Assembly: GCA_964016885.1 (NCBI GenBank)
Contig: OZ024755.1
Location: forward strand, 26,102,001 to 26,166,000
DNA: 64,000 bases
Source of the DNA: Eledone cirrhosa
Lineage: Eukaryota
Reading direction: 5' to 3'
A program made the translations under genes and the position numbers. Position 1 is the first letter of the stretch; each line of letters starts with the position of its first letter. Of this stretch, positions 45,746-61,499 are shown piece after piece. Under the pieces are notes generated by a model that did not search any database, had not been told where the DNA came from, and saw only the letters and a program-made list of their open reading frames with translations.

Positions 45746-46678
45746 ACATATACATATATACATATATATATACATATATACATACATATATACATATATA
45801 TATACATATATACATATATATATACATATATAAATATATATATATATATAAATATATATATATAAATATATATATATATATATATAAATATATATATATA
45901 TATATATATATAAATATATATATATATATATATATATATATATATATATATAAACGTATATATATATATATATAAATATATATATATATATATATATATA
46001 AATATATATATATATATATATATATATATATATATAAACGTATATATATATATATATATATATATATATATATATATATATATATATATATAAACGTATA
46101 TATATATATATATATATATATATATAAACGTATATATATATATATATATATATATATAAACGTATATATATATATATATATAAACGTATATATATATATA
46201 TATATATATATATATATATAAACGTATATATATATATATATATATATATACATATATATATATAAACGTATATATATATATATATATAAACGTATATATA
46301 TATATATATATATATATAAACGTATATATATATATATATATATATATAAACGTATATATATATATATATATATATATAAACGTATATATATATATATATA
46401 TATATATATAAACGTATATATACATATATATATATATATATATATATATATATATATATATCCATATATATATATATATAAACGTATATATATATATATA
46501 TATGTATACATATATATATATATACATATATATATATACATATATATATATATATATATATATATATATATCCATATATATATATATATACATATATATA
46601 TATATATATATATATATATATACATACATATATATATATATATTTATATATACCGTTAAAACATGTTTATTTAAAACA

Positions 46679-46718
46679 GCACCTACGTACGTTTCGCCCA
46701 GTTGGGGTTCTCAAGGGC
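46679..46718 (-). ncRNA. Hammerhead ribozyme motif, U3-A8 variant
   Basis: GCCC TTGAGAA CCCC-AACT-GGGC GAAA CGTACG TA GGTGC; C.C mismatch at the base of stem II. Confidence 0.6.
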
Positions 46719-46824
46719 ATAAATAATCACAGGTGTTCCTTATATTGCTCAGAAAGAGTTTTGGGGGTTAAATCCACATCATATATATATATATGTATAT
46801 ATATATATATACATATATATATAT

Positions 46825-47066
46825 GATTAAAACAAGTAACATTCAGAGACCAACCATATGTGAGAAAAACCACAGACCCTCCATCTCAACTCACCTTTTG
46901 AAAAGCAGAAGAACTGCGAAACCGGTAAAGGAACCAAATAAATATATATATTTTTTTTAAATAAGACTCCAGTTGCATTTTCGATTTCATCTCTTTTTCT
47001 TTATACTTTCTCTCGTGTAGGACACCTCGGTTATTTTTCATTTTGTAAAAAAAACCTCACTTTCTA
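46825..47066 (+). mobile_element. ~240-bp hammerhead-bearing element, copy 1 (Penelope pLTR/retrozyme-like)
   Basis: Repeated at 53628, 53781, 55958, 56725, 57557; TA tracts on both sides. Confidence 0.8.
46894..46931 (+). ncRNA. Minimal type I hammerhead ribozyme, U3-A8 variant
   Basis: CCTT TTGAAAA GCAG-AAGAA-CTGC GAAA CCGG TA AAGG; predicted cleavage after GUA (46927). Confidence 0.75.
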
Positions 47067-47994
47067 ATATATATATATATATATATATATATATATATAT
47101 ATATATATATACATATATATATATATATATATATATATATATATATATATATATATATATATACATATATATATATATATATATATACATATATATATAT
47201 ATATATATATATATATATACATATATATATACATATATTTATATATATAGATATATATATACATATATATATATATATATATATATATATATATATATAT
47301 ATATATACATATATTTATATATATATATATATATACATATATTTATATATACATATATATATATATATATATATATATATATACATATATTTATATATAC
47401 ATATATATATATATATACATATATATATATATATATATACATATATTTATATATACATATATATATATATATACATATATATACATATATATACATACTT
47501 ATATATATACATATATATACATACTTATATATATATATATACATATATATACATATATATACATATATATATACATATATATATACATATATATATATAC
47601 ATATATATACATATATATATATACATATATATACATATATATATATACATATATATACATATATATATATACATATATATATATACATATATATATACAT
47701 ATATATACATATATATATATACATATATATACATACATATATATACATCATCATCATCATCATCATCACCGTTTTACGTCCGTTCTTCCACGCTAGCATG
47801 GGTTAGACGGGTTGTCCTGTTGTGGGCAGTGTCTGGTCGGCTGACCATGCCTTGCTCATACAGGAACTGATCTGGCTTGATTTCTATACATATATATATA
47901 TACATATATATACATACATATATATACATACATATATATACATACATATATATACATATATATACATATATATACATACATATATATACATATA

Positions 47995-56828: not shown

Positions 56829-57776
56829 AACCAAATAAATATATATATATTTTTTTTTAAATAAGACTCCAGTTGCATTTTCGATTTCATCCCTTTTTCT
56901 TTATACTTTCACTCGTGTAGGACACCTCGGTTATTTTTCATTTTGTAAAAAAAACCTCACTTTCTGATATATGTATATATATATATATATGTATATATGT
57001 ATATATATATGTATATATATATATATATATATATATATATATGTATGTATGTATATATATATGTATATATATATATATATATATATATATATATATATAT
57101 ATGTATATATATATATATATATATGTATATATATATATATATATATATATATATATATATATCATATATATATATATATATACATATATATATATACATA
57201 TATATATATACATATATATATATATATATATATATACATATATATATATATACATATATATATATATACATATATATATATATATATACACATATATATA
57301 TATACATATATATATATATATACATATATATACATATATATACATATATATATATATATACATATATATATATATATACATATATATATATATATACATA
57401 TATATATATACATATATATATATATATACATATATATATATATATATATATATATATACATATATATATATACATATATATATATATATATATACATATA
57501 TATATATATATACATATATATATATATATATATATACATATATATATATATATATATTAGAAAGTGAGGCTTTTTTTACAAAATGAAAAATAACCGAGGT
57601 GTCCTACACGAGTGAAAGTATAAAGAAAAAGAGATGAAATCGAAAATGCAACTGGAGTCTTATTTTTTTTTTAAATATATATATTGTTTCTTCATCCACT
57701 CTCATCCCAGGAACAGTTTTGATAGCGCTAGTTTGTGATTTAAATTCGGGAATTTTATATTCTTTGAATGAAAAGA

Positions 57777-57860
57777 ACCTTCTGACGAGAATCTTTCTTT
57801 GCAACGAAGGCCGTATGGTCTCCGTTTTATTTTTGGGATTCGAAACCGATCGGTAAAGGT
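57777..57860 (+). ncRNA. Type I hammerhead ribozyme, canonical core, extended stem II
   Basis: ACCTT CTGACGA GAATCTT..AACGAAGGCC-GTAT-GGTCTCCGTT..GGGATTC GAAA CCGATCGG TA AAGGT; cleavage after GUA (57855). Confidence 0.85.
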
Positions 57861-58047
57861 AACTATAGTAGGTAAAGTCAATTTTTTAAAATTTATTTTG
57901 AAACTTTTTCATTATTTGCTAAACCTTGTTTATATCTGTTCTAGCTCGTTAATTTATTAACCCGCCATTGAACCATACTGGCATTTGGTTGGACAATACA
58001 TGCGTACCTTGGCGCCTTGTGCGTGAAGGAACGTATATCCTATTACT

Positions 58048-60917
58048 ATATATATATATATATATATATATATATATATATACATATATATATGTATATA
58101 TGTATATATATATATATATATGTATATATGTATATATGTATATATGTATATATATATATATGTATATATGTATATATATATATATATATATATGTATATA
58201 TATATATATATATATATATATGTATATATATATATATATATATATATATATATATATATATATATATGTATATATGTATATATATATATATATGTATATA
58301 TGTATATATATATATATATGTATATATGTATATATATATATATATATATATATATATATATATATATGTATATATGTATATATATATATATATATATATA
58401 TATATATGTATATATATATATATATATATATATATATATATATATATATATATGTATATATATATATATATATATATATATATATATGTATATATGTATA
58501 TATATATATATATATGTATATATGTATATATATATATATATATATATATATATATGTATATATGTATATATATATATGTATATATGTATATATATATATA
58601 TATATATATGTATATATGTATATATATATGTATATATATATGTATATATATATGTATATATGTATATATATATGTATATATATATATATGTATATATATA
58701 TGTATATATGTATATATATATGTATATATATATATATGTATATATATATGTATATATGTATATATATATGTATATATATATATATGTATATATATATGTA
58801 TATATATATATATATGTATATATGTATATATATATATATATGTATATATGTATATATGTATATATATATGTATATATATATATATATATGTATATATATA
58901 TGTATATATATATATATATGTATATATGTATATATATATGTATATATATATATATATATGTATATATGTATATATATATGTATATATATATATATATATA
59001 TATATGTATATATATATGTATATATATATATATATATATGTATATGTATATATATATACATATATACATATATATATATATATATATATACGTATATACA
59101 TATATACATATATATATACATATATACATATATACATATATATATATATACATATATACATATATACATATATATATACATATATACATATATACATATA
59201 TATATATATACATATATACATATATACATATATATATATATACATATATACATATATATATATACATATATATATATATACATATATACATATATACATA
59301 TATATATATATATATACATATATACATATATATATATATATATATACATATATACATATATATATACATATATATATATATATATATATATATACATATA
59401 TATATATATATATATATATATGTATATATATATATATATATATATATGTATATATATATATATATATGTATATATATATATATATATATATATGTATATA
59501 TATATATATATATACATATATATATATGTATATATATATGTATATATGTATATATATATATATATGTATATATGTATATATATATATATATATATATATA
59601 TATATATATGTGTGTGTATATATATATATATATGTGTGTATATATATATATATATATATGTGTGTATATATATATATATATGTGTATATATATATATATA
59701 TATGTGTATATATGTATATATGTATATATGTATATATGTATATATATATATATATATATGTATATATATGTATATATGTATATATATGTATATATGTATA
59801 TATATGTATATATGTATATATATGTATATATGTATATATATATATATATATATATATATATATGTGTATATATATATATGTGTATATATATATATATATG
59901 TGTATATATATATATGTGTATATATATATATATCTTATATATATATATATATATATATATATATATGTTATATATATATATATATATATATATGTGTATA
60001 TATATATATATATATATATATGTGTATATATATATATATATATATGTTATATATATATATATATATATATATATATATATATATATATATATATATATAT
60101 ATATGTGTATATATATATATATATATATGTTATATATATATATATATATATATATATATATATATATATATATATATATATATATACATTTATATATATA
60201 TATATATATATATATATATGTATATATATATGTTATATATATATATGTTATATATATATGTTATATATATATATTATATATATATATATATGTATTTATA
60301 TATATATATATATATATGTATTTATATATATATATATATATATATATGTATTTATATATATATATATATATATATGTATTTATATATATATATATATATA
60401 TGTATTTATATATATATATATATATATGTATTTATATATATATATATATATATGTATTTATATATGTATATATATATATATATATATGTATATATATATA
60501 TATATATATGTATATATATATATGTATATATATATATATATATATATATATATGTATATATGTATATATATATATATGTATATATATATATATATATATA
60601 TGTATATATATATATATATATATATATATATATGTATATATATATATATATATATATATATATATATATATATATATATATATATATATATGTATATATA
60701 TATATATATATATATATATATATGTATATATATATATATATATGTATATATATATATATATATATATATATATATATATATATATATATATGTATATATA
60801 TATATATGTATATATATATATATGTATATATATATATATATATGTATATATATATATATATATATGTATGTATATATATGTATATATATATATATATATA
60901 TATGTATATATATATAT
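58048..60917. repeat. 2.9-kb (TA)n-based microsatellite (others at 45746-46652, 47067-47747, 51137-52628, 52856-53627, 53924-54335, 54507-55957, 56966-57556)
   Basis: Seen directly. Confidence 0.98.
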
Positions 60918-61499
60918 AGAAAGAATAAAAAGCACGATTGATTATTCCTTCATTGCATTTATTGATAGGTGACGCGCGTTTCGCCACTGATCAGCTCAAG
61001 GTTCGATCCATATCGATCTTACGAATTGTATTCCGTTTATTTTGCCATAAATGAATAAAGAAAGTTTACATCTTATATACGAATTGTGTTCAGTTTATTT
61101 TGACAAAAATGAACAAAGAAATCAAGAGTCTACAAGAAACTGAGTAGAACGTAAGTGTATATAAAGTTTCTAAATAAATGTTTCTACTTTTGACACAAGG
61201 CCAGTGTTTTACTGGTACTTTATTTTATCGACCCCGTAAGGATGAAAGGCAAAGTTAACCTCGGCGGGATTTGAACTCAGATTGGAAAGTGCCGTAACTC
61301 TATGCGTCAAAGCATGGTGTCCGACCCTCTACCGATACTGAAATAAAGAAGCTAAGAATGTTTTTGAAAATCGGGGGTGGGGGGACTTCATGAAACGGTA
61401 CCCCATTTTTTAAATCAAGGGAGGTAACCGTTAAAAGTTTTTTGAATCAGGGAATGTAACTCTTTCTATGTATGAGTTGTCTCCCTTGAAGAGTGTTTA

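Follow-up and report, generated by a model that had tools for sequence, protein, structure and literature searches.

The non-repeat islands that interrupt a long (TA)n field in the genome of Eledone cirrhosa (genome size 3.0 Gb) are best read as 5′-truncated 3′ ends of endonuclease-bearing Penelope-like elements (PLEs; families A, B, D and E), together with one piece of a tandem repeat without an open reading frame (ORF) that is likely copied in trans (family C), all with type I hammerhead folds predicted to self-cleave. The probability of this reading is put at about 0.88. The window analysed is a stretch of 64,000 nt (G000:C15:26102001-26166000), and TA repeat makes up 62% of its single TA field (Table 1), compared with 5.2% of a position-chosen genome sample (39 stretches of 10 kb, 390 kb). 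The field is broken up by ten non-TA islands of at least 100 nt, six of which hold a hammerhead. A sequence-only reading of the window had stated that most short islands fold in this way and had given nine coordinates for complete or half motifs, all of which hold.

Six complete type I folds in the islands pass the descriptor, namely four of family A with the core UUGAAAA (U3-A8), one of family B with the core CUGAUGA and one of family C with the core CUGACGA. Over 6,412 nt of islands, these six matches compare with a mean of 0.027 and a maximum of 1 in 300 dinucleotide shuffles, and the suspicion that shuffled islands might give similar hit rates is thereby answered. Seven complete hammerheads had been counted before; the seventh, at 46679 on the minus strand, fails the descriptor solely because this family D copy carries C at position 10.1, which breaks the G10.1-C11.1 pair. 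G is present at 10.1 in 30 of the 31 family D copies read, and the fold at 46679 is a damaged copy of a genuine family member. Both half motifs reported earlier were placed, one as the inverted, truncated arm of a family A insertion whose other arm holds a complete hammerhead, and the other as a 5′-truncated copy of family E, the full copies of which hold a complete fold with a 60-nt helix II. The families had also been called unrelated, which stood at the DNA level for A and C, the one pair tested (best match 14 nt), but not for B and D, whose elements encode reverse transcriptases (RTs) with 48% identity.

Stem covariation, which had been proposed as a check, was observed in helix II. A set of 23 B-type copies, consisting of the window copy and 22 distinct-looking copies from the first 30 matches on contig C1, was picked by a pattern without any requirement for helix II pairing, and two-sided changes were present in 7 of 10 helix II pairs, a score reached in 0 of 500 shuffles, with the covarying copies falling into few related subfamilies and the events being fewer than the cells and not independent. 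RNAalifold recovered helices I and II from the B-type copies without guidance, helix I being almost invariant, and 31 of 42 distinct helix II inserts had folding z-scores below -2. Helix III is palindromic (self-complementary) in families A, B and D and, by direct reading of the sequence, in family C. Permuted hammerheads (SGC, CSG or GCS block order) were not found in the window or in five E/F loci with helices of at least 4, 4 and 3 bp, only the CGS order being present. The islands listed in Table 1 as hammerhead-bearing each carry a type I fold that is predicted to self-cleave.

Longer genomic copies of families A, B, D and E run upstream into ORFs encoding an RT and a GIY-YIG endonuclease, so that the earlier description of short, non-autonomous elements without ORFs is right for family C only. 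The family A ORF matched RVT_1 (E 2.5e-07) and GIY-YIG (E 5.4e-07) in Pfam and contains a CX4CxxC linker and CCHH residues, motifs that fit either Neptune or Nematis and suggest a Neptune/Nematis-type PLE. The ORFs of families B, D and E contain a CxCX5C linker and CxxC..CxH motifs without CCHH, with SDKT in B and D, RWK in D and RWI in B; by motifs and layout, these families are probably Hydra-type PLEs. At two loci (L323 and L324), family B hammerheads in direct orientation flank ORFs of 775 aa and 738 aa, with an additional inverted 5′ copy at L324. The first ATG of family B lies ~230 nt past the hammerhead, the ORF following the tail of the 5′ pseudo-long terminal repeat (pLTR), and the 3′ untranslated regions of the linked PLEs are ~1-2 kb long. 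ORFs in L256 and L257 were considered as those of family E and rejected, since they belong to another element.

In families A, B, C and E, copies stop at one or other of two fixed positions (a short and a long end) that are ~65-110 nt apart, with TA coming next in nearly every case. The two ends were found in 12/51 (near +90) and 34/51 (near +155) copies of family A, 44/76 and 32/76 of family B, 28/75 and 27/75 of family C (about +90 and +200 from G12; 18 continue into the next unit) and 17/33 and 12/33 of family E, most copies in these counts being best BLAST matches and biased towards young copies. Head-to-head pairs combined one long and one short end in 55 of 59 cases, and both inverted family A insertions in the window are of this kind. 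The two-end pattern is interpreted as the PLE 'tail'. Repeated insertion into (TA)n, as claimed earlier, is borne out by the genome sample, in which 17 of 21 hammerhead matches have TA at most 200 nt downstream, compared with 11.6% of background positions.

Family C consists of head-to-tail units of 480-485 nt (2-10 per array, 38% GC) with one type I hammerhead each; the longest frame is 85 aa and there is no ORF. It is read as the sole non-autonomous family among A-E and as a non-LTR retrozyme (lacking long terminal repeats) with Penelope-type ends. The connection to Penelope-like pLTRs and animal retrozymes drawn by the sequence-only reading is in this way confirmed, with A, B, D and E as PLE ends and C as the retrozyme. 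By our grouping, the first 30 family C matches on C1 represent 18 insertions, all of which end in TA; an inverted arm is present in 7 of these 18 position-chosen insertions, and none runs into a PLE ORF. Family C is likely copied in trans by a PLE enzyme, and the junctions, which are modestly new in this respect, suggest that a Penelope enzyme moves a retrozyme. Searching for a pattern that joins an A-like helix III to a canonical core gave 0 matches. A sequence at L336:750-1610 is related to family C but has diverged from it (71-76% identity), and its helix II shows a compensatory change.

Of 52 family E copies examined, 30 have a readable first block, and 23 of these carry the core CCGUCGA (U4C plus A6U); relatives with CUGAUGA or CUGACGA cores exist. 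These relatives set the register to CCGUCGA, and a reading of the core as CUGCNGA was rejected; matches of a mixed family E query resembling terminal inverted repeats were also rejected as belonging to a neighbouring element. The changes U4C and A6C singly are reported to give low activity (PMC3088659). No report of U4C+A6U was found in a literature search, and Lunse et al. 2017 may already list a CCGUCGA-type variant. The families with canonical and altered cores offer a natural test of whether PLEs need the hammerhead.

The window samples a genome-wide system and is not out of the ordinary. A ribozyme archipelago or reservoir had been described in its microsatellite field, a special status that the counts do not support, because the window holds 0.45 hammerheads per kb of TA compared with 1.03 in the genome sample. 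That sample gave 21 descriptor matches versus 0.6 in shuffles, or 54 per Mb (95% interval 33-82), and the genome-wide estimate is 1.0-2.5 x 10^5 hammerheads. Exact patterns, which for A and C cover the 3′ half of the motif only, matched 13,904 times for A, 53,307 times for B-type (9 in the reversed control) and 1,253 times for C, amounting to at least 68,000 exact motif matches genome-wide with enrichment beside (TA)n. Family E has ~2,500 matches (2,576 from a pattern that missed the last base of family D; mostly E), and 1,551 first-look candidates were obtained for family D. At least eight further hammerhead families beyond those of the window were noticed (loci L171-L209 and others), one of them likewise U3-A8 and with UC as its cleavage site. 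The axolotl genome is roughly tenfold larger. Published counts of 126,247 motifs in axolotl (PMC7229834) and about 9,000 in Xenopus tropicalis (PMC4209133) were obtained with descriptors that differ from those used here. No cephalopod or octopus hammerhead survey was found in a literature search, and the very high hammerhead density, together with a family amplified with the doubly altered core CCGUCGA, is modestly new.

A mechanism for the PLE-end reading can be proposed in which the GIY-YIG endonuclease would nick (TA)n, the RT would start internally at two RNA sites, both just downstream of the hammerhead, as in the 'tail' mechanism already published, and its synthesis would mostly halt early, so that the hammerhead-bearing end would accumulate wherever TA is abundant. 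The hammerhead likely serves, dimerised via the palindromic helix III, to process the source element's tandem precursor RNA, and the scattered single or inverted copies, including those of the window, would mostly be inert passengers. If all families were instead independent short non-autonomous ribozyme retroelements and the TA fields a functional ribozyme reservoir, the window copies without an ORF, the truly ORF-less family C and the enrichment beside TA would be expected; but four of the five families are ends of ORF-bearing elements, which contradicts this account for A, B, D and E, the window lies below the genome average per TA base, and inverted pairs would be expected to pair with each other if transcribed, leaving it improbable. 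Smaller still is the chance that the folds are dead relics or chance matches whose structure is unselected. The missing Rfam match, the weak single-sequence z-scores, the damaged family D copy, the amplification of family E with an altered core and the published PLE insertion in vitro that needs no cleavage (PMC11167929) are in its favour, while the near-zero shuffle and reversed-pattern controls, the helix II covariation and the occurrence of both 3/8 pairing combinations searched (C-G and U-A) as whole families speak against it. Chance is excluded, and 'dead' may hold for single copies.

How the family C arrays arose was considered separately. Family C RNA likely self-cleaves to ~483-nt monomers or circles, which would then be reverse-transcribed into arrays by a PLE enzyme. 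The 8 units of array L330 differ by at most one substitution and the 10 units of array L331, over both arms, by 0 substitutions, whereas arrays differ from one another by 34 substitutions on average, which is the pattern expected of a circular template. Other arrays have 3-7 substitutions between units, and in L247 and L248 two unit variants recur in one and the same order, which for some of the arrays speaks for linear copying or local duplication. Both observations would agree with an origin of the arrays in unequal crossover or local duplication of a PLE-derived monomer after insertion, or in the copying of linear multimers, and not in an RNA circle, and satellite-type growth is discussed in bioRxiv 10.64898/2026.07.22.740005; this origin is nevertheless considered less likely than not, since the arrays stop at the same two fixed ends in TA, since inverted arms occur in the position-chosen insertions, and in view of the contrast between L331 and the distances between arrays. 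A wider proposal is tentative when taken as a whole, its chance falling clearly short of even: that family C is a circular-RNA retrozyme read repeatedly by a Penelope enzyme into (TA)n, leaving arrays of identical units with tails and inversions, that the genome has among the densest hammerhead loads known (~50 per Mb), and that family E has been amplified to copies in the thousands with the core CCGUCGA, either as a new cutting variant or with a dispensable hammerhead.

Several observations weigh against the reading of the islands as PLE ends and a trans-copied retrozyme. The Rfam check proposed with the sequence-only reading found no match to any window fold, neither at the gathering score nor, on three islands, at E 10, which means that the window hammerheads are not canonical Rfam forms, and in an E-value scan of 40-64 kb, TA sequence matching miRNA models dominated the output. 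Folded as single sequences, the window hammerheads have z-scores of only -0.6 to -1.2, and the evidence for the folds therefore consists of the core pattern, the controls and the covariation, the latter with the dependence among copies given above. Neither RT nor endonuclease was recognised by Pfam in the family B and D proteins and a PDB search was also empty, so that their identity as PLEs depends on motifs and layout; the clade labels come from motifs and not from an RT tree, and family B has RWI for RWK. A homologue search gave 19 proteins, all unnamed. A direct pLTR-ORF-pLTR arrangement was seen among the loci fetched for family B and not for A, D or E, the short end of family D is clear but its long end diffuse, and the end counts carry the bias towards young copies. 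Published PLE tails are 30-40 bp (PMC8557442) versus the ~65-110 nt measured here, and the 3′ untranslated regions of ~1-2 kb are a further difference from the elements of that paper. An autonomous partner of family C was not found among the genome matches.

The window families appear as members of an already known system, since the literature already has minimal hammerheads within pLTRs, the core with U3-A8, single motifs left by truncated PLEs and pairs on opposite strands (PMC4209133), and likewise the targeting of (TA)n by elements of the Hydra and Neptune clades (Craig et al. 2021, PMC8557442). The hammerheads of PMC4209133 are like the present ones in being type I with a short helix I, a palindromic helix III and a U3-A8 variant, and in being mostly single motifs from truncated PLEs, with opposite-strand pairs ~100-700 bp apart; they are unlike them in number, with about 2,000-9,000 per genome there and at least 68,000 exact matches here under different descriptors, and no mention of the family E core CCGUCGA was found in the available part of that paper. 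According to PMC8557442, the Hydra clade shares a C-terminal GIY-YIG, the CxCX5C linker and CxxC/CxH without CCHH with families B, D and E, and DKT with B and D; Neptune/Nematis elements share a CX2-5CxxC linker and CCHH with family A; and these endonuclease-bearing clades share with the present families canonical hammerheads, (TA)n insertion, inverted 5′-truncated copies and a one-end tail. The two genomic ends of the anole element Poseidon PAc are explained by a pair of RT start sites lying just downstream of the hammerhead; in vitro, insertion still takes place with mutants of the hammerhead, and cleavage needs the protein (Frangieh et al. 2024, PMC11167929). Two genomic ends, an AT-rich target and, for family B, an ORF following the 5′ pLTR tail are common to both systems, although the clades are different and the first ATG of family B lies outside the hammerhead.

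PLEs have been proposed as movers of non-LTR retrozymes (PMC7229834; bioRxiv 10.64898/2026.07.22.740005). The metazoan retrozymes of PMC7229834 are like family C in their head-to-tail, ORF-less units with one type I hammerhead each, low GC and co-occurrence with PLEs, the units of family C being slightly longer than the 150-450 bp quoted. The published case for mobilisation by PLEs was made from shared features and phylogeny, whereas the family C junctions display ends, inversions and TA directly. Young, near-identical, full-length PLEs are present here beside a retrozyme with the same insertion signature and provide a test bed; because the signature is shared, the mover of animal retrozymes and the circle route become testable with defined parts. 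The results are also a warning that Rfam and Pfam miss this very abundant repeat class.

Table 1. The TA field and the elements inserted in it or at its edge (window coordinates)
Feature	Position	Strand	Details
(TA)n field	39542..60918	.	insertion target; single TA field
Family D, probable truncated 3′ end of Hydra-type PLE	46656..46780	-	type I hammerhead 46679-46718; core UUGAGAA (U3-A8), helix III ACGUACGU, C at 10.1
Family A, probable truncated 3′ end of Neptune/Nematis-type PLE	46826..47068	+	hammerhead 46894-46931; U3 46898, predicted cut after 46927; long (tail) end, then TA
Family A head-to-head insertion	53628..53925	.	two joined arms: minus arm with long end and half motif near 53764; plus arm with hammerhead 53815-53852 (U3 53819) and short end
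Family B, probable 3′ pLTR remnant of Hydra-type PLE	54335..54505	-	canonical hammerhead 54370-54440; C3 54432, predicted cut after 54378; short end; 5′ junction opened by an inverted 11-nt tail piece
Family A head-to-head insertion	55958..56968	.	two hammerhead-bearing arms: minus arm 56029-56066 (U3 56062), short end; plus arm 56791-56828 (U3 56795), long end
Family A 3′-terminal fragment without hammerhead	57558..57680	-	abuts family C copy; read directly from sequence
Family C, sub-monomer copy of 480-485-nt tandem non-LTR retrozyme (putative)	57688..58048	+	canonical hammerhead 57777-57860; C3 57782, predicted cut after 57855; long end, then TA
Family E, probable 3′ end of Hydra-type PLE, 5′-truncated within helix II	60918..61022	-	half motif 60962; retains GAAA, palindromic helix III and UC (G12 60982)

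Other features of the window were also recorded. An isolated family B tail piece without a hammerhead lies within the TA field at 44946-44992, and one weak descriptor match outside the field (31015, minus strand) is probably due to chance. At 45143-45745 (minus strand), an element of ~630 nt without a long ORF is inserted in (TA)n or (TATG)n; it has at least 40 copies at 99-100% identity and 2,170 first-look candidates, its 3′ part encodes a C-x2-C...H-x-R zinc-finger-like peptide, an Rfam scan gave no ribozyme match, and presumably it resembles a deleted RTE long interspersed nuclear element (LINE). A short island opening with (CAT)n (47749-47881) is probably the minus-strand 3′ end of a LINE or of a short interspersed nuclear element (SINE). 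A LINE with a 649-aa RT frame (RVT_1 E 9.7e-32) occupies 47997-51129 (minus strand) and contains a gap of 200 N (50282-50481); the ~500 nt preceding the gap recur after it, probably as an assembly artefact. The SINE-like island at 52630-52855 (plus strand) has a tRNA-like head, with A and B boxes read directly, in which no tRNA was called by ARAGORN. A repeat family of 58-nt tandem units, often in inverted pairs ~1 kb apart, was found at 61020-61200 and at loci L123-L150, and its best matches are concentrated on contigs C13, C15, C19 and C20.

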